A stretch of 64,000 nt of DNA from Acidimicrobiales bacterium. Lineage in GTDB: Bacteria > Actinomycetota > Acidimicrobiia > Acidimicrobiales > GCA-2861595. The position numbers and the translations under genes are program-made. The stretch is from the NCBI GenBank assembly GCA_036262515.1, contig DATAIT010000086.1, positions 3,194 to 67,193 on the forward strand, written 5' to 3'. Numbering within the stretch: the stretch's first letter is position 1; the number at the start of each line of letters is the position of its first letter. Below the pieces are notes generated by a model. It was not told the DNA's origin and made no database searches. It was given only the letters and a program-made list of their open reading frames with translations. Of the stretch, positions 28,932-57,896 are shown piece by piece.

Positions 28932-29009
28932 GTTGGGGGATCCTCTCGCCGGGGAGCGGTCGATCGGGGGCAACGCTAGTACGGGCATTCCCGCCTTTCG
29001 CTCACGTCC

Positions 29010-38349: not shown

Positions 38350-38538
38350 ACGACACCTCCGGGCACGGGAGCACGATACGCGCCCGCATGGGTGTGGGCG
38401 ACATCATCCGGGCCTGCGCGCGCACGGGGCGGCGGGGAGCCGTTCGCGTCCGGGATCGGCGAAGAGCGGCCGCCTATGCTGCACGCGTTCCAGCAGTCTC
38501 CGCCCAGGAGCCGGCCACCCGGCGGAAGCGAGCCGTCG
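38350..38538. promoter_or_regulatory. Divergent intergenic control region between the two arms of the glycan locus
   Basis: 189-bp non-coding gap between divergent starts (wzm GTG 38349, arm-B methyltransferase ATG 38539). Promoters are inferred from gene arrangement only. A TATGCT hexamer at 38475-38480 is a weak -10 candidate. Confidence 0.4.
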
Positions 38539-40785: not shown

Positions 40786-43700
40786 CCGACGTCGACCAGC
40801 AGGCCTCACCGCCGGGCGCGTCGATCGTCGTCGTCGTCCCCCCGGCCGCCTCCGGCGTCTCCGTCGACGGCACGCTCGACGCCGCCCGCCGGCACTCCGG
40901 CGCGGGGACCGAGGTCATCGTCGTCGTGAACGGTGCGGCAGGCCCGATGGCGGCCCGCCACCGCCCGGACATCCGCGTCGTCGCCCTCGAGCGGACCGTG
41001 CCCTTCGCAGCCGCCGCCAACCAGGGAGCGGCCGCGGCGGCCGGGGGCGTCGTGTGCTTCCTGGACCACGGGACCACGGTGACGGAGGGGTGGCTCCCGC
41101 CCTTGGTCGCCGCCGCCGCCGGGCTCGGATCAGCGGCGGCCGCCGTGCCTCGTGTCGTCTCCACCGCCGGCCGAGTCGTCGAGGCGGGCGCCGTCCTCCG
41201 GCGCGACGGCGGCGTGCAGGCGGTCGGCCGTGGCGACGTGGCCGCCGCCGTCGAGCACATGTTCACCCGCGAGATCGACGCCGGATCCGCCAGCTGCCTC
41301 TGTGTCCGCCGCGCCGCGTTCGTCGCCGCCGGCGGTTTCGAGCCTCGCCTCGACGACCTCGCAGCGGCCAGCACCGATCTCGTCCAGACCCTGCGTCATG
41401 CCGGGATGCGCTGCACCTACGAGCCGTCCTCGTCCGTGGTCGCCGGCGACAGCCGAGCACTCGACGTCCGTCCCCTCGTGCCGGCCGCATCGCCGGGGGG
41501 ACGGCTCCTGGCCGCCAGATGGGCGGCGTCGGTGCCGCCGGGCCGCCCGGCGGGCGCCGGCCCCGGTGGCCCGCTTCCCCATCACGCCCACGCGGCGCGC
41601 GACGCCGGCGCCACCGGCCGCACTCTGGTCGTGGCCGCCCGCGTGCCTCGTGCGCACGGCCCACTGGCCGAGCGACGGGTCGCGCAGCTGCTCGAGGACC
41701 TGGCCGCCCTGCGGCCGGGCGTCCGCCTCACGTTGCTCGCCGTCGACGGCCACCGAGCCGCCGAGCGGGCCCCGCGCCTGCTCGCCCGCGGCATCGAGGT
41801 CGTGGCCGGGCCGCAGGACTGGGACGACTGGTTCGACCGCCGGCTCCTGCTGTTCTCCAACGTGGTGTTCACCGACCTGCGCAGCGCCCGAGGAATCGAA
41901 CCCCGTGTGTGGAGGACGCAGCCGCAGGCGCGGAAGGTGCTCGACCTTTCGTCCTTCGACTTCCGCGACGTCGCCGCCCTGGAACCCTCGGTGGGTCCGC
42001 AGGAGATCGGCGGGTTCCGGTTCGTGGCCGAGCGCTCGGGTCAGCGCTTCGCCGAGCGCGTCGGGCGGTTCGACGCGCTCTGGTGCGCGACCCGCCGGGA
42101 CAAGGAGTGGCTGGCCGGGTTGGTCCCTCCCGGCACGCCGTGCGCGGCGGTGCCGGTGGCGGCCCGCCCGGGCGGCCACATGGGGTTCGGCTCCCGCTCG
42201 GGTTTCGTCCTCCTGGCCGGATGCGGGTCCGACGTGCTCATGGGACACGAGGACGCCGCCGCCGACACCGTGGCCCGCGTGCTCCCGGGCCTGGTGGCGC
42301 GGGACCCGGCGGCCGTGCTCAGGCTGGTGGTCGACGAACCGTCGCCCGCCGTGCAGCTCCTCGAGAGCGACCATGTCGAGCTGGTCGCCGCCGGCTCGGA
42401 CCCGGCCCGGTGGTTCCGCACGGCGCGGGCGTGCGTCGGGTCCTACCCGCTCGGGACCGGGTGGCGCGAGGCACTCGCCCTCTGCGTCGACACGGGCACG
42501 CCGTTCGTGGCCGCCCTCACCCCGGCCGCCAGGCGGGAAGCCGGCACGCCGGCGCACGTCTTCGTGACCGACGATCCGGCCTCGGCGGCGGCGCGTGCGA
42601 GTCGGCTGCACGCCGATCGACGGGAGTGGGAGGACGCCTCCACCAGGCTCCGCCGGTTCGCAGAGGGACCGGGCTCGCGCGCGGCGGCCCGTTCCGCCCT
42701 CGTGCGGGCCGTCGCCGACATCGGTGTCGCACCCGATCGCCAGGCGCCGCTGGAGCCGCCCGAGGACCTGGTCCCCGACGCGGCCGACGACCCCGCCGCC
42801 GGTGAGGGCGGCGGGTCGCCACGACCGCGGCCGAGGCGGGTGCCCGTCGTCGGCACGGCGGCACCCGCCTCCGTCGACGATGTGGCCCGCCCGCCCGACG
42901 AGCAGTACCGGCGCTGGTGCGAGCGGTCGGGCCCCACGCCGGGACGGCTGGCGGCCGTGGCCGAGCACGTGGCCCAGCTCGTCGATCCACCCCTGATCAG
43001 CGTCGTCATGCCGGTCTTCAACACCGAGCCGTCCTGGCTGGACGAGGCGATCCGGTCGGTGCGCGGGCAGCTCTACGACAACTGGGAGCTGTGCATCGGC
43101 GACGACGGTTCGAGCCGCCCGGAGACGGCGGCCGTGCTCGAGGCCCACCTCGCCGGCGAGCCGCGCATCCGGCTCATCCGGTTGCCCGAGTCCCAAGGCA
43201 TCGTCGGTGCGTCGAACGCCGCCTTGTCGCTCGCCACCGGCGAGCTGGTCGCCTTCCTCGACCACGACGACGAGCTGAAGCCCCAGGCCCTCGCCATGGT
43301 GGCGCTGCGGCTCCGTGACGAGCCCGGCACCGACCTGCTGTACACCGACGAGGACAAGCGGGAACCCGACGGCCGCCTGGTGGAGCCGTTCTTCAAGCCC
43401 GACTGGTCGCCGGACCACCTCATGTCGCGGAACTACGTCTGCCACCTCCTCGTCGTCCGGCGGGCGCTGCTCGACAAGCTGGGCGGGTTCCGTCCCGGCT
43501 ACGACGGCAGCCAGGACTACGACCTGGTGCTCCGGGCCACCGAACTGACCGATGGCATCGCCCACATCCCCGAGCCGCTGTACACCTGGCGCAAGGTCGC
43601 CGGCTCCACCGCAGCCGAGGCGGACGCCAAGCCATGGGCCCTCGATGCGGCGCGGCGGGCGCTGGCCGATGCGCTCTTGCGGCGCAACACCCCGGGCGCC

Positions 43701-44525
43701 GTCGCCGACGGCCTGCACCCGACCACCTACAGGGTCCGCTATGCGTTGCGGGGCGCCCCCAAGGTCTCGATCGTGATCCCCACGCGCGACCGGGGCGCCA
43801 TGCTCCGAACCTGCATCGACAGCATCGTGGAACGCTCCACGTACACGAACTACGAGCTCATCGTGGTCGACAACCAGAGCGAGGATCCCGAGACCCTCGG
43901 CTATCTCGGCGCCGTGCCTGGGCTGGTCCTCCGCTACCCCTTCCGGTTCAACTACTCGCGCATGATGAACATGGCGTGCTCGGAGGCCGACGGCGACCTG
44001 CTGCTCCTCCTCAACAACGACACCGTCGTGCGCTCTCCCGACTGGATCGAGGCCCTCGCCGAGCACGCCCAGCGCGCCGAAGTGGGCATCGTCGGTGCCC
44101 GTCTGCTCTACCCCTCGGGGCGGCCGCAGCATGAGGGAATCATCACCGGCTACGCCGGAGGCCACGCCGGCAACGTCGACCACGGCGGCTACTGGGGCCT
44201 GGGTGACGTCGTGCGCAACTGCACCGCTGTGACCGGCGCGTGCACCATGGTGCGGCCCGCTGTCTATTGGGCCATCGGCGGCCACGACGAGCGCCTGCGC
44301 GTCGCCTTCAACGACGTGGACCTGTGCCTTCGTGCCCGCCAGGCGGGCTACGACGTCGTGTACACGCCGTACGCCGAGCTGAGTCACATCGAGGGCGGCA
44401 CGCGGGGCGTCCACGCCCACGTCGACGACGACGCGATGTTCGAAGGTCGCTGGGCGACGGACCGGTGCGTGGACCGCTTCTACAGCCCCAACCTCAGCCG
44501 GCGGTGGCCGTTCCGCATCGTGTGA
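40782..44525 (+). CDS. 1247-aa multi-domain glycosyltransferase, paralogue of 30463..34116 (putative polymerase, arm B)
   Basis: GT2-A: ISVVMPVFNTE, IGDDGS, FLDHDDEL. GT2-B: SIVIPTRDR, VVDNQS, LLLNNDTVV. GTGA overlap with the upstream stop. Confidence 0.88.
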   Translation: MTDVDQQASPPGASIVVVVPPAASGVSVDGTLDAARRHSGAGTEVIVVVNGAAGPMAARHRPDIRVVALERTVPFAAAANQGAAAAAGGVVCFLDHGTTVTEGWLPPLVAAAAGLGSAAAAVPRVVSTAGRVVEAGAVLRRDGGVQAVGRGDVAAAVEHMFTREIDAGSASCLCVRRAAFVAAGGFEPRLDDLAAASTDLVQTLRHAGMRCTYEPSSSVVAGDSRALDVRPLVPAASPGGRLLAARWAASVPPGRPAGAGPGGPLPHHAHAARDAGATGRTLVVAARVPRAHGPLAERRVAQLLEDLAALRPGVRLTLLAVDGHRAAERAPRLLARGIEVVAGPQDWDDWFDRRLLLFSNVVFTDLRSARGIEPRVWRTQPQARKVLDLSSFDFRDVAALEPSVGPQEIGGFRFVAERSGQRFAERVGRFDALWCATRRDKEWLAGLVPPGTPCAAVPVAARPGGHMGFGSRSGFVLLAGCGSDVLMGHEDAAADTVARVLPGLVARDPAAVLRLVVDEPSPAVQLLESDHVELVAAGSDPARWFRTARACVGSYPLGTGWREALALCVDTGTPFVAALTPAARREAGTPAHVFVTDDPASAAARASRLHADRREWEDASTRLRRFAEGPGSRAAARSALVRAVADIGVAPDRQAPLEPPEDLVPDAADDPAAGEGGGSPRPRPRRVPVVGTAAPASVDDVARPPDEQYRRWCERSGPTPGRLAAVAEHVAQLVDPPLISVVMPVFNTEPSWLDEAIRSVRGQLYDNWELCIGDDGSSRPETAAVLEAHLAGEPRIRLIRLPESQGIVGASNAALSLATGELVAFLDHDDELKPQALAMVALRLRDEPGTDLLYTDEDKREPDGRLVEPFFKPDWSPDHLMSRNYVCHLLVVRRALLDKLGGFRPGYDGSQDYDLVLRATELTDGIAHIPEPLYTWRKVAGSTAAEADAKPWALDAARRALADALLRRNTPGAVADGLHPTTYRVRYALRGAPKVSIVIPTRDRGAMLRTCIDSIVERSTYTNYELIVVDNQSEDPETLGYLGAVPGLVLRYPFRFNYSRMMNMACSEADGDLLLLLNNDTVVRSPDWIEALAEHAQRAEVGIVGARLLYPSGRPQHEGIITGYAGGHAGNVDHGGYWGLGDVVRNCTAVTGACTMVRPAVYWAIGGHDERLRVAFNDVDLCLRARQAGYDVVYTPYAELSHIEGGTRGVHAHVDDDAMFEGRWATDRCVDRFYSPNLSRRWPFRIV

Positions 44526-44566
44526 CCTCCAGGAGCCGGCCAGGGCGCCGGTGTACTGTGCGCCCG

Positions 44567-45592
44567 ATGTCGGCGCCGCCACGGTCCCGAGAGGCGCAGC
44601 GCAGCCTCCTGGCGAGGCATCTGGCCGGCGACGGCATCGAACTGGGCCCGGGCCACGTCCCCTTCCCCGTGCCGTATCCCGGCATCCGCGTCCGCTACGT
44701 CGACCGCTGGCAGCCCGACGAGAACCGGGCGCTGTTCCGCGAGCTGGGCGACGAAGCCCCGTTTCCCATGCCCGACATCGTCTGCAACTTCGACACCGAC
44801 GGGCTCAGGCAGGTCGACGACGCCAGTCAGGACTTCGTCATCGCCAGCCACGTGCTGGAGCACGTGGCCAACCCGCTGTCGTTGCTCGACGAGATCCATC
44901 GGGTGCTGCGCCCCGGCGGCGTGGTGCTCCTGCTGCTTCCCGACCGGCGGCGCACGTTCGACCGCCGCCGGGCACCCACGCCACTCGCCCACGTCGTCGA
45001 CGAGCACCTGCGGGGCATCACCTCCGTGGACGACCACCACGTGGCGGACTTCCTCGTGGGCACCGACGTCCCCATCCCCGACGACGAGGGCGACCGCGTC
45101 GCCGTGTTCGACCTGCACCGCCGGCGTTCGATCCACGTGCACTGCTGGCAGGAGGACGAGTTCTTCGAGGTCCTCGAGCATGCCGTCGCCGAGCTGGCCC
45201 ACCGCTGGGAGCTCGTCGACGCGGTCCTCGCCGACGACGAGGGCGACGACGGGTTCGAGTTCGGCTACGTGCTCCGCCGGACAGCCGCGCTCGACGATGC
45301 CGGCGTCCTCGCCGAGCGGCTCCGCCTGTCGTGGCAGCGGTGGCTCGAGACCAGGTCGTGGTGGCACGGCTGCCTCGCCGCCGGCGGGTCGACGGCGCCC
45401 CCCGAACCTGCTGCCGCCTGCGAGCGGCCGGGCCCGGGGGAGCCGATCGACCTTTCCCTGCCCGCCGAGCCGCCACGGATCCCGACGCCCGCTCGGCCCG
45501 GCGGTCGCGGCGTGCTGGCCGACATCCGGCGCACCACCCGAACGCACGCGGCGACGATCGCCGAGCGGATCCGTCGAACGCCGAACGTCTGA
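44567..45592 (+). CDS. Class I SAM-dependent methyltransferase (third in the locus)
   Basis: GIELGPGH (motif I-like), QDFVIASHVLEHVANPLSLLDEIHRVLRPGGVVLLLLPD. Low-complexity C-terminal ~90 aa. Start at ATG 44567. Confidence 0.78.
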   Translation: MSAPPRSREAQRSLLARHLAGDGIELGPGHVPFPVPYPGIRVRYVDRWQPDENRALFRELGDEAPFPMPDIVCNFDTDGLRQVDDASQDFVIASHVLEHVANPLSLLDEIHRVLRPGGVVLLLLPDRRRTFDRRRAPTPLAHVVDEHLRGITSVDDHHVADFLVGTDVPIPDDEGDRVAVFDLHRRRSIHVHCWQEDEFFEVLEHAVAELAHRWELVDAVLADDEGDDGFEFGYVLRRTAALDDAGVLAERLRLSWQRWLETRSWWHGCLAAGGSTAPPEPAAACERPGPGEPIDLSLPAEPPRIPTPARPGGRGVLADIRRTTRTHAATIAERIRRTPNV

Positions 45593-45601
45593 AAGGACGC
45601 C

Positions 45602-46585
45602 ATGATCATCACGAGGACACCGCTGCGCATCACCCTCGGCGGCGGCGGCACGGACCTTCCGTCGTACTACGAGCGCCATGGTGGCTACGTCATCTCCGCC
45701 GCCATCGACAAGTACGTCTACATCGGCGTGCACCACACGTTCACCGACGAGTACTTCATCAAGTACTCGTCGCTCGAGCGGGTCTCCCGCGTCGACGAGA
45801 TCCAGCACCCCATCGTCCGTGAGGCGCTCCGCCTCCACGACGTACCTCCGGCCATCGAGGTGGTCAGCCTGGCCGACATCCCGGCCGGCACGGGCCTCGG
45901 CTCCTCGGGGTCGTTCACCGTCGGGCTGCTGCGCGCGCTGTACGCCCTCAAGCGTGAGCACGTCACGGCCGGTGCCCTGGCCGAGGAGGCGTGCAGCATC
46001 GAGATCGACCGGCTGGCCCAGCCCGTCGGCAAGCAGGACCAGTACATCGCCGCCTTCGGTGGGCTGACGTGCTTCGAGTTCGGCCACAGCGGCCGGGTCC
46101 GGGTGTCGCCGCTGGCGATCTCCAACGAGACACTGCACGACCTCGAGGAGCACCTGGTGATGTTCTTCACCGGCTATTCCCGCCAGGCGTCGGTGGTGCT
46201 CGAGGACCAGAAGCAGCGGTCGGAGGCGGGCGACGGGCGCATGTTCGACAGCCTCCACATGGTGAAGAAGCTCGGCATGGCGACCAAGGAGGCGCTGGAG
46301 GCGGGTGACACGGCCCACTTCGCCGCATTGATGCACGAGCACTGGCTGCACAAGAAGGAGCGGTCGGCTGGCATCACGTCGGACGAGATCAACCGCTGGT
46401 ACGACCTCGGCATCGAGCACGGAGCCCTGGGCGGCAAGCTGGTCGGCGCCGGGGCGGGCGGCTTCCTGCTCTTCTACACCCGCGACCGCCTGCGGCTGCG
46501 CGACGCCATGGCGGAGCAGGGCCTCACCGAGCTGCGGTTCTCCTTCGACCACGACGGTTCCACCGTGACGGCCCGGGGGACGTGA
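45602..46585 (+). CDS. hddA: GHMP kinase, D-glycero-alpha-D-manno-heptose 7-phosphate kinase-like
   Basis: MIITRTPLRITLGGGGTDLPSYY N-terminus, GHMP motif PAGTGLGSSGSF, C-terminal GGKLVGAGAGGFLLFY. Lies in a cluster with gmhA, gmhB and hddC. Confidence 0.82.
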   Translation: MIITRTPLRITLGGGGTDLPSYYERHGGYVISAAIDKYVYIGVHHTFTDEYFIKYSSLERVSRVDEIQHPIVREALRLHDVPPAIEVVSLADIPAGTGLGSSGSFTVGLLRALYALKREHVTAGALAEEACSIEIDRLAQPVGKQDQYIAAFGGLTCFEFGHSGRVRVSPLAISNETLHDLEEHLVMFFTGYSRQASVVLEDQKQRSEAGDGRMFDSLHMVKKLGMATKEALEAGDTAHFAALMHEHWLHKKERSAGITSDEINRWYDLGIEHGALGGKLVGAGAGGFLLFYTRDRLRLRDAMAEQGLTELRFSFDHDGSTVTARGT

Positions 46586-47316
46586 CGCCCTGCGTCATCC
46601 TCGCCGGCGGCCTGGGCACGCGGATCCGCGCTGTCGCCGCCGATGTGCCGAAGGTCCTCGTCCCCGTCCTCGGGCAGCCGTTCGTGCACCATCAGCTCAG
46701 CTGGCTGGCCAGCCAGGGCGTCACGACCGTGGTCCTGTCGATCGGCCACAAGGGAGCCGCCGTCCGCCACTACGTGGGGGACGGCGGGCGGTGGGGGATC
46801 TCCGTCACGTACGTGGACGAGGGTGAGGACCTGCGGGGCACCGGTGGCGCGCTGCGGCTGGCCCTCGCGCAGGGTGTCCTCCCGGAGCGGTTCCTCCTGC
46901 TCTACGGCGACTCGTATCTCCCGGTCGACATCGCGCCGGTCGAGGAGGCGTACGAGCGGTCGGGGCTGCCCGCCCTCATGACCGTCTATCGCAACGAGGA
47001 TCGCTGGGACCGCAGCAACGCCTCCTACGAGGGCGGCCGCGTCGTGCTCTATCAGAAGCACCATCCCGACCCCGAGCGGGCCGGGCTGCGCTTCCTCGAC
47101 TACGGGCTGTCGATGCTCGGCCACGACGTCGTCGACGAGATGGTCCCGCCCGACCAGGTGTGCGACCTCGCCGACGTCTTCCACCGCCTCAGCGTGGAGG
47201 GGCGCCTGGCGGGATACGAGATGACCCAGCGGTTCTTCGAAGTGGGATCGCCGGAGGGGCTGCGGGACCTCGAAGCTCACCTGTCGGGCCCCGCCCCGGC
47301 CCCGTCGGAGCGGTGA
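46582..47316 (+). CDS. hddC: Sugar-1-phosphate nucleotidyltransferase, heptose-1-phosphate guanylyltransferase-like
   Basis: VILAGGLGTRI NTP-transferase loop, and LLLYGDSY. GTGA overlap with the hddA stop. Assignment relies on pathway context. Confidence 0.75.
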   Translation: MTPCVILAGGLGTRIRAVAADVPKVLVPVLGQPFVHHQLSWLASQGVTTVVLSIGHKGAAVRHYVGDGGRWGISVTYVDEGEDLRGTGGALRLALAQGVLPERFLLLYGDSYLPVDIAPVEEAYERSGLPALMTVYRNEDRWDRSNASYEGGRVVLYQKHHPDPERAGLRFLDYGLSMLGHDVVDEMVPPDQVCDLADVFHRLSVEGRLAGYEMTQRFFEVGSPEGLRDLEAHLSGPAPAPSER

Positions 47317-47362
47317 CGCCGGTCACCCACCTGTCCCGGCACGACGCCGTAGTGTTCGTCGG

Positions 47363-47962
47363 ATGAGCACCTTCACCCGCACCTTCCTCGAGGAGACGGT
47401 CTCGATCGTGGAGAAGCTCGACCACGACGAGATCGAGCGCGTCGCCACCGGCCTGGCCGCCGTGCGCGAGCGAGGTGGCCGGCTGTTCATCCTCGGTGTC
47501 GGCGGCTCGGCCGGCCACGCGGGCCACGCCGTCAACGACTTCCGCAAGATCTGCCTCTTCGAGGCGTACGCCCCCACCGACAACGTGGCCGAGCTCACGG
47601 CGCGGGTGAACGACGAGGGCTGGGACACGACGTTCTCGGAGTGGCTCAAGGGGTCTCGGCTGAGCGAGCGCGACGCCCTGCTCGTGTTCTCCGTGGGCGG
47701 GGGGAACCGGGAGAAGAACGTATCGGTCAACCTGGTGCGGGCGCTCGAGCTGGCCGTGGAGCTCGGCGCCGCGGTGTTCGGGATAGTGGGCCGCGACGGC
47801 GGTTTCACCGCCGAGGCGGCCACCGCCTGCGTGGTCATCCCTCCGCTCAACCCCGACCGGATCACACCGCATACGGAGGGCCTGTGCGCCGTCGTCTGGC
47901 ACCTGCTGGTGAGCCACCCGCTGTTGCAGGTCGAGGGCACGAAGTGGGAGTCGGTCCTCTGA
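47363..47962 (+). CDS. gmhA: SIS-domain sedoheptulose-7-phosphate isomerase
   Basis: GGRLFILGVGGSAGHAGHAVNDF, and ...LLVFSVGGG. Length of 199 aa is typical of GmhA. Confidence 0.82.
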   Translation: MSTFTRTFLEETVSIVEKLDHDEIERVATGLAAVRERGGRLFILGVGGSAGHAGHAVNDFRKICLFEAYAPTDNVAELTARVNDEGWDTTFSEWLKGSRLSERDALLVFSVGGGNREKNVSVNLVRALELAVELGAAVFGIVGRDGGFTAEAATACVVIPPLNPDRITPHTEGLCAVVWHLLVSHPLLQVEGTKWESVL

Positions 47963-48002
47963 ACGCTGCCGGGCGTGCGGGCCGCCGAGGGCCGCAATAG
48001 CC

Positions 48003-48545
48003 GTGCTCCGGCCGGGGGTGTTCCTCGACCGGGACGGCGTCGTGAACCGGGCCATGGTGCACGCCGGCCTGCCGTTCCCGCCGTCGGCGGTGGCCGATCT
48101 CGAGATGCTTCCCGGCGTCGAGACGGCGTGCGCCGCCTTCCGGCGAGCCGACATCGCCGTCGTGGTGGTCACCAACCAACCCGACGTCGTCCGCGGCACC
48201 ACCACGCGCCAGGCGGTCGACGAGATCAACTCGGCCCTTCGCTCGATGCTGCCCATCGACGACCTGATGGTGTGCTTCCACGACGACGACGACGGCTGCG
48301 AGTGCCGCAAGCCCGCTCCTGGTCTGCTCCTCCAGGCGGCCGAGCGGCTCTCCATCGACCTCGCCCGCAGCGTCATGGTCGGAGACCGCTGGGGCGACAT
48401 CGAGGCGGGCCGCCGGGCGGGCTGCAGTACGGTGTGGATCGAGCAGGGGTACTCGGAGCGCCGTCCGGACCACCAGGACGTCACGATGCAGAGCCTGTAC
48501 GACGCAGTGCCCTGGATACTCGCACGCTGCCTAGGAGGCGTATGA
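48003..48545 (+). CDS. gmhB: HAD-IIIA D,D-heptose 1,7-bisphosphate phosphatase-like
   Basis: VFLDRDGVVN (DxDG), VVVTNQPDV, CxCRKPAPGLL, MVGDRWGDIEAG. GTG start at 48003. Confidence 0.82.
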   Translation: MLRPGVFLDRDGVVNRAMVHAGLPFPPSAVADLEMLPGVETACAAFRRADIAVVVVTNQPDVVRGTTTRQAVDEINSALRSMLPIDDLMVCFHDDDDGCECRKPAPGLLLQAAERLSIDLARSVMVGDRWGDIEAGRRAGCSTVWIEQGYSERRPDHQDVTMQSLYDAVPWILARCLGGV

Positions 48546-49258
48546 CACGCATGAGCGACCTTCGGGTGAAGATCTTCGCCGACGGCGCCGATCGAGCCGG
48601 CATCGTCTCGCTCGCAGCGGATCCTCTGATCAAGGGTTTCACCACCAACCCGACCCTCATGCACGCGGCGGGCCTCCGGGACTACGAGGCATTCGCGCGC
48701 GACGTCCTCACCTGCGTGGGCGACCGTCCCATCTCGTTCGAGGTCTTCTCCGACGACTTCGACGACATGGAGCGCCAGGCCCTGAAGATCGCGGCGTGGG
48801 GGGACGGGGTCTACGTGAAGATCCCCGTCACCAACTGCTCGGCCGTCAGCGCGGCGCCGCTGATCCGCCGGCTGGCGGAGCTCGACGTGAAGCTGAACGT
48901 CACCGCCCTGATGACGCTCGACCAGGTCGAGGAGGTCGCAGCCTGCCTCGCCGGAGGACCCCCGAGCGTCATCTCGGTGTTCGCCGGCCGCATCGCCGAC
49001 ACCGGCCGCGACCCCGTACCGATCATGGCCGCCGCCCTCGACATCGTCCGCCGGTACCCCAAGATCGAGCTGCTGTGGGCCAGTCCACGCGAGATCCTGA
49101 ACGTCGTGCAGGCCGACGAGATCGGCTGCGACATCATCACCGTGACCCACGACCTGCTCAAGAAGCTGCCGATGATCGGCTACGACCTCGCCCGCTTCTC
49201 CCTCGACACCGTGAAGATGTTCTTCACCGACGCCCAGGCGGCCGGCTTTTCCCTCTAG
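48542..49258 (+). CDS. Small transaldolase / fructose-6-phosphate aldolase family enzyme
   Basis: KIFADGAD...GFTTNPTLM, VYVKIPVT (Schiff-base Lys region), and VISVFAGRIAD. Its ATG overlaps the gmhB stop (ATGA). Confidence 0.8.
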   Translation: MTRMSDLRVKIFADGADRAGIVSLAADPLIKGFTTNPTLMHAAGLRDYEAFARDVLTCVGDRPISFEVFSDDFDDMERQALKIAAWGDGVYVKIPVTNCSAVSAAPLIRRLAELDVKLNVTALMTLDQVEEVAACLAGGPPSVISVFAGRIADTGRDPVPIMAAALDIVRRYPKIELLWASPREILNVVQADEIGCDIITVTHDLLKKLPMIGYDLARFSLDTVKMFFTDAQAAGFSL

Positions 49259-49264
49259 TCCGCT

Positions 49265-49294
49265 GCGCCCCCGGCGGGGCCCGGCGCTTCTTTT
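49265..49294 (+). terminator. Candidate intrinsic terminator of the plus-strand heptose operon
   Basis: Imperfect GC-rich hairpin GCGCCCCCGGCGGGGCCCGGCGC followed by TTCTTTT, 7 nt after the transaldolase stop. Confidence 0.5.
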
Positions 49295-49326
49295 CCCGTT
49301 CGGCGACACTCCGTGTCGTGTTGCGG

Positions 49327-49355
49327 ACGAAGAAAGGGCGCGTCCCCGCCGCGCC
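49327..49355 (-). terminator. Candidate intrinsic terminator of the minus-strand YfhO operon
   Basis: The minus strand reads GGCGCG-GCGGGGA-CGCGCC (6-bp stem, 7-nt loop) followed by CTTTCTTCGT, 11 nt after the YfhO-like stop. Confidence 0.55.
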
Positions 49356-49365
49356 GGCGGCGGCA

Positions 49366-52215
49366 CTAGGTCTGGTTCGGGTCCGGGGCGTGGCCCGCGC
49401 TCGCACCGGTGCCGACGACCGCTCCCGAGCGGCGGCGCCTGGTGACGACCGCCCACGAGGCCCACACGGTGAGGCCGGCGGGCGGGCCGAGGAGGCCGAG
49501 GCGGAAGTTCGTCGGCCGGTACCGGAACACGACGGTCGAGCGGCCGGCGGGAACGTCCACCCCTCGGAACAGCACGTCGGTCGGGTACACGGCCGCTCCT
49601 GCGCCGTTGACCTCCGCCTTCCACCCCGGGTAGTAGGTGTCGGTGAGCACGAGCAGGCCCGGGCACGGCGAGTCGACGTCGATGCGCACCTCCTGGGGCT
49701 CGTAGGCGCGGATGCGGGTGGCGGCGTCACCCCGGCAGTCCATGCGGCCGCCGGCCCGGCCTTCGACGACCGCCGTCTTACGCGGGTCCAATGTGCCGAC
49801 CCGGACCGCGCCGCCCGGGAAACGACCGCCGGAGGACTTGAAACGGTTGATCGCGGCCTCCTCGTTCCTCACGCCCACCACGTCGTGGACCACCAGGGCC
49901 CGCGGCGCGACCGTCGTGTTGCGGTAGACGGTGGCGTTGCCGGCCGAGCCCAGGAGCTCGTACTGCGGCACGGGAGCCGGTGTCGGCCCGTCGGCACCGG
50001 TGAAGTGGAGGTCGGCCCATCCCGCCCAGTCGGTGTGGGCGTTCGCTCTGGGGCGGACCTCGAGAATGAGGCTTCGGACCGGTCCGTGCGTCCCGCGCAA
50101 CGCGACCTGGCCCGATCGCCACTCGGGCCCCACTGGGTCCTGCCGGGGCACCATGGTGGCCCGAAAGAGCTCGGACACGACGTTGTCGTCCGTGCGGCCC
50201 GAGATCACGAACTCGACGCCGTCATCGGTAAGGTCGCCGAACGCCTCGGTCTGCATGGCGTAGGAGAAGGTGAACCCCGTGGCCTGCGCGGACTCGACCG
50301 GGAACTCGACCTGCTGCCCGCTGTGCTCGAACAGCACCGGCCGGGCGTCGCCGCCCAGGTCGAACACGGTCGGCCGCAGACCGGCGTCGGGCGGGCGGCT
50401 GGCGAAGATCCGCTCGACCAGTCCCGACCGCTCCGGCGCCGTCCCGCCACTCAGGAGGTAGCGGACGCCGAGCATGTCCCACATGGGATTGGCGGCCACT
50501 TCGGAGAGCTGCACCTCCTCACCCGGATTCCCGCCGTGGGGCCCGCCGACGTAGCGCGTGTAGGCGCTCGGCTGGACGAACGTGTTGATGTAGTCGAAGA
50601 ACCGCTTGGGGAACAGGGCGTCGAGCGTCCGGACGTCGGAGATGCCCAACGCCCCGGGAATGTCGGGGAACAGGCGGGCGTCGAGACCGAAGGTCCGGTC
50701 CCAGGTGGCCAGCCCCTTGGACCGGATGAGCTCGACGGCCGGCGGCGGCGTGTAGGGATCGGCCCGCTCCGGATACATCCCACGGGGCGCCAGGGCCAGC
50801 AGCTCGACGACGATGACCCCGGCGAGGAGCACCGAGGCCCTGGGACCCTTGAGGAGCGCGACGATGGCGACGGCCAGGGTGAAGGCCACGATGGCGCCGG
50901 CGAAGGGAACGATCCGGTCGCTCCCGTGGACCAGATCGGGGCGGGCCAGCTTCGTGAGCCAGGCGGTGAGGGCGACCAGGACCACCGCACCGGCGGCGAG
51001 GACCCGTCGGTCGACGTCGCCGTCGGCCACCGCCTGGACACCCGCTCCGGCCAGCACGGCGATGCAGAAGGCGCCGACCGGAGGGGCGAACGCAGGAAAG
51101 CTGGCTCGCACGACGAGAGGCAGGCGGCCGACCTCGGCGATCACCGGGGCCCCGAAGATCTTGGCGATGACGGCCACCCCGAGCACGGCGAAGAACAACC
51201 CCCCTCGACGCCGCCACGTGGGACTGGCGATGGCGGCGACGGCAGCCACCGAGGCGGACGCCCCGACCCACTCGCGCAGCCCGACGAACGAGCCCCGGCC
51301 CCGTGCGAACGGGACCAGCCAGCCGAGCAGCCAGCTGGTCGGGTCGGCCTGCAGGCCCACCTTGGCCGCGTTGGAGTGGGTGTTGTGCGAGATCGAGACG
51401 TATTCGACGAAGAGGAGCAGCAACGGCAGCACGAAGGCCAACGCCAGCGCTCCGGCCGCCATGAGGCCGGCGAGGGACCTCCTCCGCTCCGGTGCCCCGA
51501 CGATGCGGAACAGCGCGTAGAGCACGGTCGCCCCGACGACGAACAGCGTGGACTCGGGCATGCCGACGAGGAAGTTCCCGGCGAGGGCGGAGGCGAGACC
51601 CAGCACGGCCAGCGGGCGTCGCCTGGCGATCACCCGATCGACGCCGAGCAGCAATGCCGGGAGGTAGAGGTAGGACCGGAAGAACTGGTTGTTGGAGTAG
51701 AGGAAGAAGTAGCCGGACAGCGTGAAGGTGAGCGTTCCCGTCGCGCCGGCGACCGGACCGAGCCCCAGGATGCGCAGGAACGCATAGCCGCCGACGGCCC
51801 CCAGCAGCAGCGCGAGAAGGAAGCAGAGGTCCCAGAACAACGGTGTGGCGTGCAGGTGGACAGGCAGGAGCAGCGGATCGAAGGCGGCGCTCTGCATGTT
51901 GGCGGCCAGGGGCTTTCCCGTGGCCGAGTAGGGGTTCCAGAGCGGCCAGTGCCCGGAGCGGAATTCCCGGGCGACGATCTCGCCCCAGGGCTCGAACTGC
52001 CATGCCGACGCCCCCTGGTCGATGCGCACCGGATCGGGCGGCGCATCGACCTTCCTGCCGGCGGGCGGGATCGGCGGGTCGACCCCGTTGGCGTTGGCCG
52101 TCAGGTACGAGGTGCTGAACGTGCGCCCCAGAAAGGGGACCTCGAAGAACCCGACGAGGACTGCGGTGCAGACCAGGAGCAGGGCGACGATGTCGGCGCG
52201 ACGGCTGCGGATCAA
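49366..52215 (-). CDS. YfhO-family polytopic membrane glycosyltransferase (GT-C)
   Basis: Many TM helices. Motif HWPLWNPYSATGKPLAANMQSA. C-terminal TDTYYPGWKAEVNGAGAAVYPTDVLFRGVDVPAGRSTVVFRYRP is typical of YfhO. The only start near the upstream stop is TTG 52215. Confidence 0.8.
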   Translation of the reverse strand: MIRSRRADIVALLLVCTAVLVGFFEVPFLGRTFSTSYLTANANGVDPPIPPAGRKVDAPPDPVRIDQGASAWQFEPWGEIVAREFRSGHWPLWNPYSATGKPLAANMQSAAFDPLLLPVHLHATPLFWDLCFLLALLLGAVGGYAFLRILGLGPVAGATGTLTFTLSGYFFLYSNNQFFRSYLYLPALLLGVDRVIARRRPLAVLGLASALAGNFLVGMPESTLFVVGATVLYALFRIVGAPERRRSLAGLMAAGALALAFVLPLLLLFVEYVSISHNTHSNAAKVGLQADPTSWLLGWLVPFARGRGSFVGLREWVGASASVAAVAAIASPTWRRRGGLFFAVLGVAVIAKIFGAPVIAEVGRLPLVVRASFPAFAPPVGAFCIAVLAGAGVQAVADGDVDRRVLAAGAVVLVALTAWLTKLARPDLVHGSDRIVPFAGAIVAFTLAVAIVALLKGPRASVLLAGVIVVELLALAPRGMYPERADPYTPPPAVELIRSKGLATWDRTFGLDARLFPDIPGALGISDVRTLDALFPKRFFDYINTFVQPSAYTRYVGGPHGGNPGEEVQLSEVAANPMWDMLGVRYLLSGGTAPERSGLVERIFASRPPDAGLRPTVFDLGGDARPVLFEHSGQQVEFPVESAQATGFTFSYAMQTEAFGDLTDDGVEFVISGRTDDNVVSELFRATMVPRQDPVGPEWRSGQVALRGTHGPVRSLILEVRPRANAHTDWAGWADLHFTGADGPTPAPVPQYELLGSAGNATVYRNTTVAPRALVVHDVVGVRNEEAAINRFKSSGGRFPGGAVRVGTLDPRKTAVVEGRAGGRMDCRGDAATRIRAYEPQEVRIDVDSPCPGLLVLTDTYYPGWKAEVNGAGAAVYPTDVLFRGVDVPAGRSTVVFRYRPTNFRLGLLGPPAGLTVWASWAVVTRRRRSGAVVGTGASAGHAPDPNQT

Positions 52216-52231: not shown

Positions 52232-53197
52232 TCAGGTGCGGATCTCCTCGCGCCCGAGCACCCACGGGTTGTCGAGGAGGTAGTCCACCGTGTCCTCCAC
52301 GGCGGCCCGGATGGAGTACCTCGGCTCCCACCCGGTCGTCCGGATCTTGCCGGTGGCCAGGTAGATGAAGGGGTTGTCGCCGACCCACCCCCGGTCGCCG
52401 CCGGTGTACTCGATCCTCGGCTCGAGCCCGGCGCGGGCGCAGATCCAGCCGGCCGACTCGACCACGCTGCAGTAGTCGTCGACGCCGAGGTTGAAGACCT
52501 CGCAGCGGTGGTCGGCGTCGAGGACCGACATGAGCGCAGCCACGCAGTCCGAGACGTGGAGGTAGCTCTTGCGCTGGCGACCGTCCCCGAGCACCTCCAG
52601 GCGGGTCGGGTCGGCACGGAGCTTGCGCAGGAAGTCGACGACGTGCCCGTGCGTGTAACGGGGGCCCATGATCGACACGAAGCGGAAGATCGTCGCCTTC
52701 AGGTCCGTGCCCTCTGCGTACGCCTGCACGAGCCCTTCGGCCGCCAGCTTGGACGCCCCGTACAGCGACGTCTGCAACGGGAAGGCGCAGCCCTCCGGGG
52801 TGGGGATCTCGGGGGCCTCCCCGTACACGGATCCGGTCGACGAGAAGACGATCCGCCCCACACCCGCCCTGCGCATGCCCTCGAGGACGGCGTGCGTGAC
52901 GATGGTGTTCTGCTCCAGGTCGCGCCGCGGTGCGCTCCAGCCGAAGCGGACGTCGGCGTTGGCGGCGAGATGCACGACGGCGTCGCATCCGGCGAACCGC
53001 ACGGGGAGCTCGTCGGCCTGGCGGTACAGGTCGATCTCGGCCAGCTCGAAGCCCGGCTGCTGGACGGCGTGCTCGAGGAAGCGCATCGATCCGGTGGAGA
53101 AGTCGTCGAGACCCAGCACCCGGTGCCCAGCCGCCAGCAGCGCGTCGGTGAGGTTCGACCCGATGAAGCCGCCAGCGCCGGTGACCGCGATCTTCAT
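52232..53197 (-). CDS. NAD-dependent nucleotide-sugar epimerase/dehydratase (extended SDR)
   Basis: [16 protein letters not shown] (GxxGxxG), and catalytic YGASK. Confidence 0.88.
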
Positions 53198-53234: not shown

Positions 53235-54407
53235 TCACCAGGTCTCGTCCCTGCCCGCCCACTGTCGCCACACCTCGGCCGGCGACCGGTGCCGGCGGCG
53301 GGCGAGGAGCGGCCGGGTAGCCACCGTCGCCGGCAGCCGGGGGATCAGCGCCCGCCGCAGGCCCGGCGGACTGCAGGCACCGAGGGCCCGCCGGAGCTGG
53401 GCGGCGGCCACGGTGACAGGGGCGTTGCGGGCGAGGCACAGCAACCGGTTGCGCGCCGCCAACCCCCGGACCTGAGCGGCGAGCGGTCCCCCGCTGGTGA
53501 CGCCGCCGACGTGGCGGACGACCCCGGACGGCTCGTAGAGCGCCCGGAAGCCGGCCAGCCGCGCCCGCCAGCACCAGTCGACGTCCTCGTAGTACGCGAA
53601 GAACGAACCGGCGAACGGCCCGACCCGAGCCAGCGTCGACGCGGTGGTGACCATGGCGCCGCCGCAGGCCCCGAATCGCTCGGCCGGATCGTCGAACCGG
53701 CCGTCGTCGGGGCTGAGGTACCCATGGTCTCCACCCCATCCCTCCGTGCTCAGGTACGACCCGGCGTTGTTGACGAGCCGGACCGTTCCCACCACGGGTG
53801 CCGGCCGGCCGTCGATCTCGACGGTCGACGGATCGTCCTCGGGGCCGAGGGGCACGTAGATGGGCGACCGTCCCGCCGTCCACCGCCACGGGCCGGCCCG
53901 CCCGTCCAGCTCGCCGTTCTCGAGGGCGTGCACACCCGGCCCGACGAGCCGCTCGAGGACGTCGACTCCGCCCACCGTGGCCGTGCGGAGTGCCCGGCCC
54001 AGTGGGCGGGCGTCGGTGCCGATGCGCCGCGGCTCGTCGTCGAAGCGGACCTCGGCGAACGGCAGGGCGAACACCAGCTTGGGGGCGACCACGGCGACGC
54101 TCGGGTCCACGAGGGCGTCCCGGGCCGACGCCAGCCAGCCGGGCTCGGCCATGGCGTCGTCGTTCAGCAGGGCGATGACGTCGCCGGTGGCGGCGGCGAC
54201 ACCGGCGTTGACGCCGGCAGGGAAGCCGGCGTTGACGGTCAGGCGCACGACCCGGGCGCCGGCGGCGCCCGCCGCCCCGGCGACCGCAGCGTCCCTCGAC
54301 CCGTTGTCCACGACGACGACCTCGTCGCACTGGTCGGCCACCGACGCGAGGCACTCGGGCAGCCACCGGTGGAGGCGGTGGGACACCACGATCACCGACG
54401 TCGCCAC
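53235..54407 (-). CDS. GT2 glycosyltransferase (rhamnosyltransferase-like subgroup)
   Basis: [42 protein letters not shown] and [15 protein letters not shown]. Start at GTG 54407. The 183-codon track extension was rejected. Confidence 0.85.
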
Positions 54408-56396: not shown

Positions 56397-57896
56397 ATGC
56401 CGGACGTCGACCAGGAGTTCCTCGCCCTTCCCTTCCGGCGCCTGGCCGACGCCGCCCTCGACCGGGCCCGGGCCCTCGGGGCCACCTACGCCGACTTCCG
56501 GTTCGAGCGCAGGCGCGGCCAGACCATCAAGGTCCGCGACCGCAGCCTCGAGCGCCTCACCGACAGCGAGACGGTCGGCTACGCGGTGCGCGTCGTGCAC
56601 GGGGGGGCCTGGGGGTTCGCCTCGGCCGTCGAGCTCACCGAGGACTCGGCTGCGGCCACCGCCGAGTCGGCCGTCGCCGTCGCCGCCACGCTGGCCCCGC
56701 TCAACTCCGAGCCGGTCGGGCTGGCCCCCGAGCCGGCGCACCGGGGGACGTGGGTCTCCTCCTACGACATCCACCCGTTCTCCGTCCCCGACGCCGACAA
56801 GGTGTCGTTCGTCACTTCGGTCAACGAGCGGCTCCTCGGGTCGGGCCGCGTCCGCCACGTCGACTTCAACGTGCGCCAGGTGCTGGAGGGCAAGTACTTC
56901 GCCGACCTCAACGGCTCCGATCTCGTGCAGCAGCGGGTGCGGGTCGACGGCGACTTCACGGCCGTGCGAATCGACGACGCCACCGGCTCGTTCGACACCA
57001 TGCGGTCGTGCGCCCTGCCGTCGGGGCGGGGCTGGGAGCACGTGGCCACCGCCTACAGCTGGGCGGCAGAGGCCGACCAGGTGCCGGAGCTGCTCGAGGA
57101 GAAGATGGCCTCTCCGTCGGTCGAGCCCGGGCGCTACGACCTGGTGATCCACCCGACGAACCTGTGGCTGACCATCCACGAATCCATCGGCCACGCCACC
57201 GAGCTCGACCGCGTCCTCGGCTACGAGGCCAACTACGCGGGAACGTCGTTCGCCACGCTGGACAACCTGCACACCCTCCGGTACGGCTCGCCCGTCATGC
57301 ACGTCACCGGCGACCGCAGCGTCGAGCACGGCCTGTCGACGGTGGGCTGGGACGACGAGGGCGTGGCCGCCCACGAGTGGGACCTCATCCGCGACGGGGT
57401 GCTCGTCGGGTACCAGCTGAACCGCCAGATGGCCCACAAGCAGGGCTTCGGGCACTCCAACGGCTGCGCCTACGCCGACTCGCCCGCCACCGTGCCGATC
57501 CAGCGCATGCCCAACGTGTCGCTCCGGCCGGCTGCCACCGACATCACCGTGGACGACCTCATCGGCGGCGTCGACCGTGGCCTGTACGTGGTGGGTGACA
57601 AGAGCTGGAGCATCGACATGCAGCGCTACAACTTCCAGTTCACCGCCCAGCGCTTCTACGAGATCCGCGGCGGCAAGCTGGGAGGCCAGCTCAAGGACGT
57701 GGCCTACCAGGGCAACACCACTGAGTTCTGGAACTCCCTGGAGGCGGTGGGCGGCCCCTCCACCTGGCTCCTCGGCGGTTCGTTCAACTGCGGCAAGGGA
57801 CAGCCCGGTCAGATCGCCCCCGTGAGCCACGGGGCGCCGGCCGCCCTGTTCCGGCAGGTGAACGTGCTCAATGTCGCGTCGGAGACGTCCGGATGA
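56397..57896 (+). CDS. tldD: TldD-family metallopeptidase
   Basis: HESIGHATELDRV metal-binding motif, and ...GKGQPGQIAPVSHGAP near the C-terminus. Paired with a PmbA-like paralogue. Confidence 0.88.
   Translation: MPDVDQEFLALPFRRLADAALDRARALGATYADFRFERRRGQTIKVRDRSLERLTDSETVGYAVRVVHGGAWGFASAVELTEDSAAATAESAVAVAATLAPLNSEPVGLAPEPAHRGTWVSSYDIHPFSVPDADKVSFVTSVNERLLGSGRVRHVDFNVRQVLEGKYFADLNGSDLVQQRVRVDGDFTAVRIDDATGSFDTMRSCALPSGRGWEHVATAYSWAAEADQVPELLEEKMASPSVEPGRYDLVIHPTNLWLTIHESIGHATELDRVLGYEANYAGTSFATLDNLHTLRYGSPVMHVTGDRSVEHGLSTVGWDDEGVAAHEWDLIRDGVLVGYQLNRQMAHKQGFGHSNGCAYADSPATVPIQRMPNVSLRPAATDITVDDLIGGVDRGLYVVGDKSWSIDMQRYNFQFTAQRFYEIRGGKLGGQLKDVAYQGNTTEFWNSLEAVGGPSTWLLGGSFNCGKGQPGQIAPVSHGAPAALFRQVNVLNVASETSG

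Follow-up and report, generated by a model that had tools for sequence, protein, structure and literature searches.

Which sugar is made by five consecutive plus-strand genes (45602-49258) in a glycan locus of an Acidimicrobiales bacterium, and what is a transaldolase doing among them? The stretch of DNA analysed here, hereafter the window, is 64,000 nucleotides long (contig DATAIT010000086.1; C86:3194-67193) and belongs to a 3.41-Mb genome that is 97.8% complete, with a G+C content of ~73%; the best named relatives of its proteins come from metagenome-assembled genomes (MAGs) of Acidimicrobiales. A first-pass annotation of the same DNA had taken the five genes for a complete pathway to guanosine diphosphate (GDP)-D-glycero-α-D-manno-heptose, in which the transaldolase could supply the starting compound, sedoheptulose-7-phosphate. 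Our analysis indicates that the five genes very probably constitute one module, in which a transaldolase primes the synthesis of a nucleoside diphosphate (NDP)-activated higher sugar of some chain length. The octose-type version of such a module, suggested by comparison of the encoded proteins with those of known pathways, has in our estimate about an even chance of being the correct one. The cassette is a widespread, unstudied module, lodged here in the cell-surface sugar locus of a soil actinobacterium. Its genes are the following:

45602-46585, plus strand: GHMP sugar kinase (K; PF00288 + PF08544)
46582-47316, plus strand: sugar-1-phosphate nucleotidyltransferase (N; PF00483, PF12804)
47363-47962, plus strand: SIS-domain ketose-phosphate/aldose-phosphate isomerase (S; PF13580, SIS_2)
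48003-48545, plus strand: HAD-IIIA phosphatase (H; TIGR01662, TIGR01656)
48542-49258, plus strand: small transaldolase (T), TAL_FSA (PF00923, 136 bits; TIGR02134; alternative ATG at 48551)

Gene calling relied on third-position G+C and a listing of open reading frames. Together with Pfam it bore out the order and the families given by the first-pass annotation; third-position G+C is high in all five frames, as real genes should show at this base composition. The two 4-nt junction overlaps described earlier were found again, GTGA (46582-46585) between the kinase and nucleotidyltransferase genes and ATGA (48542-48545) between the HAD and transaldolase genes, and AGGAGG stands immediately 5′ of the transaldolase start. 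The combination of a GHMP kinase with an NTP_transferase (PF00288/PF08544, PF00483) likewise agrees with the HddA/HddC-like, α-anomer architecture proposed before, and not with HldE-type domains.

The transaldolase is an extra copy tied to the cassette

The transaldolase scores 322.8 bits against TIGR02134, above the curated cut-off of 281.95. Its residues D14, N36, S65, E67, K93, T121, F147 and R150 align with D6, N28, S58, E60, K86, T110, F132 and R135 of the Thermoplasma protein 3S0C, all being kept. We take these to be the catalytic set with its Schiff-base lysine, with Phe, and not Tyr as in fructose-6-phosphate aldolases, at the transaldolase/aldolase switch. Small transaldolases of the TIGR02134 type are annotated in Staphylococcus and Coxiella, and a copy on a Staphylococcus aureus plasmid shares 46.6% identity with the window protein; unlike a typical member, however, the latter is a second transaldolase, joined to a sugar-activation operon, and not the only one of the cell. 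Indeed, a housekeeping classical Tal is encoded on contig C128, inside a tkt-tal-pgi-gnd-zwf-opcA operon, which makes the cassette transaldolase an extra, pathway-dedicated copy. Each cassette gene is present in a single copy in the genome.

TIGR02134 matches occur in 16 of 401 sampled Acidimicrobiia genomes, and the cassette-type SIS protein (E <= 1e-50) occurs in the identical 16 alone; a distant SIS match at 2e-19 came from one more genome. The two genes share a contig in 15 of these 16 carriers (without G275, an unpublished genome, the count is 15/15). The carriers span 14 genera and, relatives not being independent, no p-value is attached to this agreement. In a phylum-wide sample, six of 401 genomes exceeded the TIGR02134 cut-off. 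The protein search also returned HAD-transaldolase fusion proteins (P0089 and P0102). Synteny, co-occurrence and fusion proteins together argue that the link between the transaldolase and the cassette is functional and not accidental. The earlier idea of the transaldolase as a mere supplier of sedoheptulose-7-phosphate is thus weakened, both by the full pentose-phosphate operon and by the strict co-inheritance with the cassette isomerase.

Two side observations concern the same subfamily. Plasmid p3211-1 of Streptomyces sp. 3211 (L093) carries a TIGR02134-type transaldolase, 54% identical to that of the window, in a different setting: a major facilitator superfamily (MFS) transporter, D-arabinono-1,4-lactone oxidase, the transaldolase and the hexitol phosphatase HxpB, with many transposases around. 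Two actinobacterial genomes of 2.2-2.3 Mb in the phylum sample (G665 and G676; family code f95) have two TIGR02134 copies each above the cut-off.

Distribution and forms of the cassette

Relatives were sought in one genome per species by means of the transaldolase alone, and at least 589 were found. The best 80 loci, with transaldolases 58-68% identical and from >10 phyla, were fetched; as several contigs are short, the counts made in them are lower bounds. A cassette-type SIS gene is present in 67/80 of these loci, the HAD gene in 62/80, the kinase in 45/80 and the nucleotidyltransferase in 41/80. All five genes occur together in 26/80, 18 of the 80 have the order of the window within 4 kb, and six show no partner gene, partly on account of short contigs. 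The gene arrangement is far beyond chance.

Two forms can be told apart, which differ in the genes that accompany the five and in the place of a short-chain dehydrogenase/reductase (SDR). The long form (L044, L066) reads SDR (E1), adh_short, UGDH-like, adh_short, Gfo/Idh/MocA, kinase, nucleotidyltransferase, SIS, HAD and transaldolase; the short form (L045, L071) reads SIS, SDR (E2), HAD and transaldolase, followed by the kinase and nucleotidyltransferase. Both exist within the Acidimicrobiia. The window has its SDR gene on the opposite strand, downstream of the cassette:

52232-53197, minus strand: extended SDR, putative member of the GDP-sugar 4-epimerase subgroup (E1; matches to solved structures)

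The window follows the gene order of the long form, yet its kinase (71%), nucleotidyltransferase (60%) and SIS isomerase (74%) are closest to those of a short-form locus, L085. Its SDR is closest to the long-form E1, with 59% identity to that of L044 and 63-65% to those of L089, L091 and L092; E1 homologues at >=50% identity are present in 20 of the 80 loci. A UGDH-like gene of the cassette type could not be found; the nearest match in the genome, on contig C11, is 34% identical. Elsewhere in the same genome, a short stretch at a contig end, away from the cassette (C35:97-2853, L083), holds a Gfo/Idh/MocA gene 49.5% identical to that of L044, an adh_short gene and a glycosyltransferase family 2 (GT2) gene; these three may tailor the same sugar.

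The complete long operon also resides on plasmids. That of Rhizobium jaguaris CCGE525, on plasmid pRCCGE525c, is 64-86% identical to the operon of a Geobacteraceae MAG (the R. jaguaris proteins, L094, share 53-86% identity with those of the window), and plasmid 3 of Lawsonia intracellularis likewise carries a complete copy. In the latter, the RefSeq/PGAP names are "SIS domain-containing protein", "HAD-IIIA family hydrolase", "transaldolase", "galactokinase" and "nucleotidyltransferase family protein". PGAP itself thus resorts to generic names here, whereas databases and first-pass annotations read the cassette genes as an ordinary heptose pathway. A relative without transaldolase is found on plasmid pRle248b of R. 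leguminosarum bv. viciae 248 (L108) and on ~55 other Rhizobium plasmids; it comprises SIS, GT2 and SDR genes, a 650-aa HAD-IIIA fusion, a GHMP kinase (43% identical to that of the window) and two oxidoreductases. This cluster provides a natural contrast for what the transaldolase adds.

Relationship to heptose enzymes

Four of the five families match the GDP-D-glycero-D-manno-heptose (HddA/HddC) pathway, with which the cassette has the GHMP/NTP_transferase (α, GDP) architecture in common. The kinase, nucleotidyltransferase, isomerase and phosphatase are nevertheless all under the NCBIfam equivalog cut-offs. As the heptose reference we used the wcb-type set of Burkholderia arboris, since a search of plasmids had yielded no canonical HddA annotated as such. 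Since this set also fails three of four cut-offs (HddA 381/600, GmhA 172/209, HddC 152/300), failure alone is weak evidence. The window proteins score about half or less of the Burkholderia values on the heptose models.

The kinase reaches 180.6 bits against the HddA model NF049969 (cut-off 600; Burkholderia 381.4), and its best solved relatives are heptose-7-phosphate kinases of the WcbL/HddA type (173.7 bits), well ahead of fucokinase (60) and galactokinase (36). It thus does not fall among hexose kinases, a placement that would have spoken against the first-pass annotation. Its identity is 43% to the kinase of the transaldolase-less R. leguminosarum cluster, 35% to the Burkholderia one and 29-31% to kinases of the lincosamide (Lmb) type, to be introduced below. 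The nucleotidyltransferase matches the models for MurU (86 bits), mannose-1-phosphate guanylyltransferase (81) and HddC (NF049965; 71.9 of 300 bits), all below cut-off, and the solved structures 4Y7T (74 bits) and Yersinia HddC (68 bits); on this basis it is probably a guanylyltransferase. The phosphatase is above cut-off for TIGR01662 (82.6 bits) and TIGR01656 (124.7 bits), reaches 113.4 bits against the GmhB model NF006506 (cut-off 178) and has the GmhB-type structure 3L8H as its best solved relative (81.5 bits). Heptose-pathway structures thus figure among the top matches of three of the proteins: WcbL for the kinase, HddC for the nucleotidyltransferase and GmhB for the phosphatase.

Two features separate the cassette from this pathway, which lacks a built-in transaldolase and whose isomerase is of another kind, that of the cassette lying outside GmhA/DiaA. 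The cassette isomerase scores only 40-44 bits against GmhA models (cut-offs 209-320), among them 40.1 bits on TIGR00441 (Burkholderia GmhA 172 of 209), and 36 bits against solved GmhA. Aligned with GmhA, it shows an insertion opposite the S-T-S-G stretch, presumably a phosphate-binding loop, which in the cassette protein would be remodelled. A look-up of the isomerase in the ESM Atlas returned only clusters named "SIS domain-containing protein".

Comparison with an Lmb-type sugar block

The same five enzyme types are encoded together, with the same transaldolase-first logic, for the GDP-octose of the lincosamides, and an SDR epimerase follows in both. According to the available portions of work on Streptomyces lincolnensis and S. 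caelestis, LmbR is the transaldolase, LmbN the isomerase, LmbP the kinase, LmbK the phosphatase and LmbO the guanylyltransferase, LmbM/L/Z/S acting thereafter (PMC4351081, PMC12945683, PMC5854111). In the same portions, LmbR converts ribose-5-phosphate plus fructose-6-phosphate or sedoheptulose-7-phosphate to octulose-8-phosphate (PMC5854111, PMC4351081, PMC12945683), and the gene order, given with functions, is lmbR-S-O-P-Z-N-M-L plus lmbK (PMC12945683, PMC4351081). In openly licensed PMC and bioRxiv texts, the enzyme set was found only in lincosamide papers; no heptose or polysaccharide cluster with a transaldolase was found there, and the papers naming HddA or HddC made no mention of a transaldolase. 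Nor is one mentioned in the available portion of the description of the bradyrhizose operon, with its 11 genes for sugar-modifying enzymes (PMC4743980).

TIGR02134 gave no match at E <= 1e-45 in 401 genomes from an actinomycete genus with large genomes; this threshold was too strict, since Lmb-like transaldolases reach only 78-106 bits. Searching 371 large-genome actinomycete genomes (genus code g201) with the window isomerase gave matches in six genomes, at 32-36% identity. Four genomes (G764, G883, G972 and G1107; L102-L105, with L102 at G764:C17:148000-167900) contain a nine-gene block in the order TAL_FSA, DegT aminotransferase, nucleotidyltransferase, GHMP kinase, Gfo/Idh/MocA, SIS, SDR epimerase, UGDH-like dehydrogenase and HAD phosphatase. 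This is the published order lmbR-S-O-P-Z-N-M-L plus lmbK, with genes inserted between the kinase and the oxidoreductase in G972 and G1107. The flanks of L102 encode ABC transporters, a class II tRNA-synthetase-like protein and a 436-aa protein of unknown kind, and obvious counterparts of lmbT/V/Q are missing; we therefore speak of an Lmb-type sugar block and not of a lincomycin cluster. The block may belong to an undescribed lincosamide-like or amino-octose natural-product cluster.

In BLASTP comparisons with the counterparts in G764 and G1107, two proteins of the cassette score higher with the Lmb-like block than with the heptose enzymes. The isomerase scores 75-77 bits with the Lmb-like proteins against 47 with E. 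coli GmhA, 46 with Burkholderia GmhA and 43 with DiaA, and the phosphatase 144 (48% identity) and 101 bits against 80 (33%) with E. coli GmhB and 64 with Burkholderia. The claim that the first four genes are the established heptose route is not supported. The Lmb-like transaldolases give 84 and 64 bits and the epimerases 202 and 188 bits. Identities to the Lmb-like counterparts are 29-31% for the transaldolase and the kinase, 30-32% for the nucleotidyltransferase, 33-34% for the isomerase and 39-48% for the phosphatase. The long cassette form shares UGDH-like and Gfo/Idh/MocA genes with the lincosamide pathway as well; here the E1, UGDH-like and Gfo/Idh/MocA proteins are, respectively, 38-40%, 30-37% and 35-39% identical to the Lmb-like epimerase, dehydrogenase and oxidoreductase. 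On TIGR00441, the window isomerase (40 bits) lies even below the Lmb-like isomerases (54-89).

Trees were computed with IQ-TREE under LG+C20, with 21-23 cassette rows picked for diversity before tree building. In the isomerase tree, a branch with 98/94 support places the cassette, the Lmb-like proteins and the R. leguminosarum SIS protein together against E. coli GmhA, Burkholderia GmhA and DiaA; cassette and Lmb-like isomerases group with 85/81 support, and the isomerase is the only protein on the Lmb-like side of its own tree. In the approximately unbiased (AU) test, a clade of cassette and GmhA was rejected (delta lnL 32.2, p-AU 0.011). Of the complete heptose pathway announced by the first-pass annotation, the enzyme families and a kinase nearest to heptose-7-phosphate kinases consequently stand, and the GmhA assignment of the isomerase falls.

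The window also differs from a lincosamide cluster in content and setting. That the proteins are one by one orthologous to those of the Lmb set is not borne out; of the LmbM/LmbL/LmbZ/LmbS tailoring set, the window has the SDR epimerase only; no aminotransferase was seen among the genes scanned, and no carrier-protein domain; and instead of an antibiotic cluster, the setting is a surface-glycan locus that has its own ABC exporter. What the cassette and the Lmb block have in common, and the heptose pathway lacks, is a built-in transaldolase and a non-GmhA isomerase.

A linked putative GDP-sugar 4-epimerase

The best solved relatives of the window SDR (E1) are an Archaeoglobus protein (3EHE, 267 bits) and PhGal4E_1 of Pyrococcus (8RDG, 251 bits), ordinary GalE proteins scoring ~90-119 bits. 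Both are members of a GDP-sugar 4-epimerase subgroup described recently, as far as the available portion of that paper goes (PMC12171764). E1 of L044 and E2 of L045 match the same structures with 221-302 bits. Thus E1 resembles the promiscuous archaeal enzymes (PhGal4E_1 of Pyrococcus horikoshii, 8RDG/8RDH; Archaeoglobus 3EHE; Pyrobaculum 3AW9) in score and in retaining the catalytic Tyr and Lys; Y145, K149, R83 and H182 are all kept, and it differs from them in having Ala for P80 and Ser for N174. As judged from these similarities, the SDR points to GDP activation and C4 epimerisation of the cassette product. The available portion of PMC12171764 names no native substrate for the subgroup, so we can only infer its link with the cassette.

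Proposed pathway and its alternatives

In the pathway that we propose, the transaldolase would move a three-carbon dihydroxyacetone unit from fructose-6-phosphate or sedoheptulose-7-phosphate to an aldose phosphate; with ribose-5-phosphate, the favoured acceptor, octulose-8-phosphate would result. The non-GmhA SIS isomerase would convert the ketose phosphate to an aldose omega-phosphate, to whose anomeric O1 the GHMP kinase would add an α-1-phosphate. After removal of the terminal (omega) phosphate by the HAD-IIIA phosphatase, the nucleotidyltransferase would form the NDP-sugar, with GDP the most likely nucleotide, and the convergent SDR, if it acts as a GDP-sugar 4-epimerase, would invert C4. 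The product would be consumed by glycosyltransferases of the surrounding glycan locus, whose polymer is predicted to leave the cell through Wzm/Wzt, and a neighbouring YfhO-like protein may add the sugar outside the membrane.

The relationships found above follow the two ends of the sugar. The genes acting at the far end (the transaldolase partnership, the isomerase and the phosphatase) lean towards Lmb, and those acting at C1 (the kinase and nucleotidyltransferase) towards heptose or neither. It is because the far-end genes lean to the Lmb side that we favour an octose-type product, as judged from these sequence comparisons, over a heptose, which we hold to be a serious but lesser possibility, and over another chain length, which seems unlikely.

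Several observations weigh against an octose, among them the kinase result and the ordinary nature of the transaldolase subfamily. In BLASTP the kinase scores 100 and 70 bits with the Lmb-like proteins, against 129 with Burkholderia and 230 with the transaldolase-less cluster of R. leguminosarum; the HddA model gives it 181 bits, as compared with 93-115 for Lmb-like kinases and 381 for Burkholderia; and a branch of its tree with 95/86 support unites the cassette, R. leguminosarum and the Burkholderia wcb-type kinase against Lmb-like kinases and GalK, an alternative that joins the cassette to the Lmb-like kinases not being rejected (AU test, p-AU 0.15). The nucleotidyltransferase is equidistant (Lmb-like 69 and 68, Burkholderia 77 bits), and the phosphatase tree gave no resolved placement. 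The deep branches are all long, so that attraction artefacts may be at play, and the Lmb-like block, used here in place of published Lmb sequences, was identified from its gene order and protein families alone. Lmb-like transaldolases match the FSA/TalC model TIGR00875 best (88-144 bits) and reach only 78-106 bits on TIGR02134, as against 323 for the cassette. In five of 19 cassette genomes (G121, G133, G536, G756 and G676), the TIGR02134-type protein is the only TAL_FSA (PF00923) match, which suggests that this subfamily probably performs the ordinary sedoheptulose-7-phosphate reaction. To our knowledge, linear aldo-octoses are unreported in bacterial polysaccharides, in which heptoses are common. 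Finally, it is the families that are observed, each chemical step and the chain length being deduced from them.

The difference in transaldolase subfamily means that the cassette is a separate lineage and not an Lmb orthologue. By the sequence relationships described here, it appears to be a third lineage of one pathway design, orthologous neither to the textbook heptose pathway nor to the Lmb block, with a transaldolase apparently recruited from a subfamily other than the Lmb-like one.

The strongest alternative is a divergent GDP-heptose pathway, in which the isomerase takes sedoheptulose-7-phosphate, the product is a GDP-D-glycero-heptose (manno or other) that the SDR epimerises at C4, and the transaldolase only boosts or secures the supply of sedoheptulose-7-phosphate. 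We consider this quite possible, if short of even. For each of the four genes other than the transaldolase, an enzyme of the heptose pathway is the closest, or nearly the closest, named relative; the kinase, for one, has 173.7 bits to solved heptose-7-phosphate kinases and, in the best tree, a position beside the Burkholderia wcb-type one (95/86). The failure at strict NCBIfam cut-offs carries little weight, the wcb-type set failing too; a transaldolase that is the sole TAL_FSA protein in 5/19 cassette genomes is probably a normal one; and the transaldolase-less Rhizobium plasmid cluster, with a kinase 43% identical, also speaks for this reading. On the other hand, a supply of sedoheptulose-7-phosphate should hardly be wanting where an intact pentose-phosphate operon is present, and classical Tal was also found in 12 of 14 other Acidimicrobiia cassette genomes searched (G275 not among them). 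In 401 Acidimicrobiia genomes the cassette isomerase never occurs without the transaldolase, and the HddA/HddC literature that we covered knows no such partner. With 40 bits on TIGR00441, the isomerase is also more distant from GmhA than even the octulose-type isomerases of the Lmb-like block (54-89), and its grouping with GmhA is rejected (p-AU 0.011).

Alternatively, the transaldolase may use a different acceptor, such as a hexose-6-phosphate (giving a nine-carbon ketose), arabinose-5-phosphate or a deoxy or amino aldose phosphate, so that an undescribed NDP-sugar results. Transaldolases do take several aldose phosphates as acceptor, according to the available portion of PMC5854111, and the cassette forms its own lineage in every protein compared. 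In the isomerase, the loop opposite the S-T-S-G stretch, at which GmhA binds phosphate, is remodelled. The data favour no particular other acceptor, however, and the kinase, phosphatase and nucleotidyltransferase are still close to heptose and octose enzymes, so that such a product is unlikely. That the transaldolase is an ordinary metabolic gene which came to lie behind a sugar-activation operon by chance, with no role there, is highly improbable: some TIGR02134 genes do occur in unrelated contexts (as on the Streptomyces sp. 3211 plasmid) and 6/80 loci, partly on short contigs, lack a partner, but the gene overlaps the HAD gene by ATGA, the isomerase adjoins it in 67/80 loci, presence and absence are identical in 401 genomes and fusion proteins exist.

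Should the product be an octose, or else a heptose of an unusual kind, an overlooked sugar would be present throughout one class of surface glycans; the class would span soil Acidobacteriota, Planctomycetota, Chloroflexota, Legionellales, candidate phyla and Rhizobium. One may speculate further, with somewhat less than even confidence, that bacteria of >10 phyla, including the culturable R. jaguaris, carry a linear aldose of eight carbons on their surfaces, made by way of a GDP-octose, that their route is independent of that of lincomycin, and that this GDP-octose is the natural substrate of the GDP-sugar 4-epimerases termed 'promiscuous', which have hitherto been studied in vitro with archaeal enzymes only. 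Handles for such studies are offered by the cultured and harmless carrier R. jaguaris CCGE525 with its plasmid pRCCGE525c, by the lmbRSOPZNML-K-type block for comparison and by the candidate native substrate of the 4-epimerase subgroup. New here are the co-occurrence count, the housekeeping-operon control, the link to GDP-sugar 4-epimerases and the named carriers, together with the first sequence-level comparison of the cassette with an Lmb-type block, the results of which are mixed.

The surrounding glycan locus

The first-pass annotation had placed the cassette within a glycan locus, and this is borne out by the presence of ABC-transporter genes. The features around the cassette are the following:

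36308-37528, minus strand: Wzt, ABC ATPase with Wzt_C glycan-binding domain (PF00005 + PF14524)
37525-38349, minus strand: Wzm, ABC-2 permease (PF01061)
38476-40785, plus strand: methyltransferase-fusion protein (Pfam)
40782-44525, plus strand: triple-GT2 protein (Pfam)
44558-45592, plus strand: class I SAM methyltransferase, adjoining the kinase gene upstream (PF08241, PF13489; start ATG 44567 or GTG 44558)
49337-49355, minus strand: terminator-like G+C-rich hairpin with T-run, between two convergent units (terminator scan)
49366-52215, minus strand: YfhO-like polytopic membrane protein (PF09586 at the C-terminus, E 3.3e-14)
53235-54407, minus strand: soluble family-2 glycosyltransferase (PF00535; no hydrophobic segments)

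The components of Wzm/Wzt-dependent glycan assembly are all present, namely PF01061 and PF00005 + PF14524 beside multi-domain GT2 proteins. The wzm-wzt genes are divergent from the plus-strand string and lie at the centre of a mirrored duplication (30463-36311, minus strand, versus 38476-44525, plus strand), the paralogues being 47.5% identical for the methyltransferase-fusion pair and 53% for the triple-GT2 pair (~1200 aa each). The locus is thus an ABC-transporter-dependent glycan locus with a mirrored duplication. The plus-strand string (38476-49258) consists of the methyltransferase fusion, the triple-GT2 gene, the methyltransferase gene and the five cassette genes, with gaps that are short or replaced by overlaps, such as that of 4 nt at 40782-40785 between the first two. 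The terminator scan found no terminator-like site inside 38476-49258; the hairpin at 49337-49355 is the sole one in 38000-50000, and since shuffled sequences average 2.0 it is not significant alone. The promoter scan gave 0 sites. The methyltransferase directly upstream of the cassette, confirmed by PF08241, is a local add-on, with 3 weak partial matches in the 80 loci.

The convergent unit that faces the cassette begins with the GT2 gene, followed by the E1 SDR gene and the YfhO-like gene. A homologue of the GT2 protein, 34% identical, is encoded directly 5′ of E1 in L091. Residues 9-480 of the YfhO-like protein contain ~12 hydrophobic segments, and a large domain makes up its C-terminal part; it is a candidate extracytoplasmic glycosyltransferase of the GT-C type. 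Homologues with 35-36% identity adjoin the cassette in two of the eight fetched Acidimicrobiia loci (L089 and L092); the 80 wider loci gave 3 weak matches only. Farther off in the window, at 21185-22251 (minus strand), a 229-aa GT2 protein and a small DUF2304 membrane protein are encoded, a pair that could supply the polyprenyl-phosphate sugar donor which a YfhO-like transferase would require.

Two other genes of the glycan locus, at 22287-24122 (minus strand; 611 aa, ~6 membrane segments) and 27384-28973 (minus strand; 529 aa, soluble), matched no Pfam family at E <= 1e-5 and had no homologue in the 80 loci. A TldD/PmbA pair is encoded at 56397-59269 (plus strand), 3 kb from the SDR gene, and the lmb cluster also has two genes of the PmbA_TldD family (lmbIH and lmbQ). 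As an echo of lmb the pair was discarded, the 80 cassette loci containing 0 homologues, and we treat it as a probable coincidence. No RNA run was among the listed runs that contain the stretch; as DNA, it is present in metagenome runs, from soil or of unspecified origin, of four studies.

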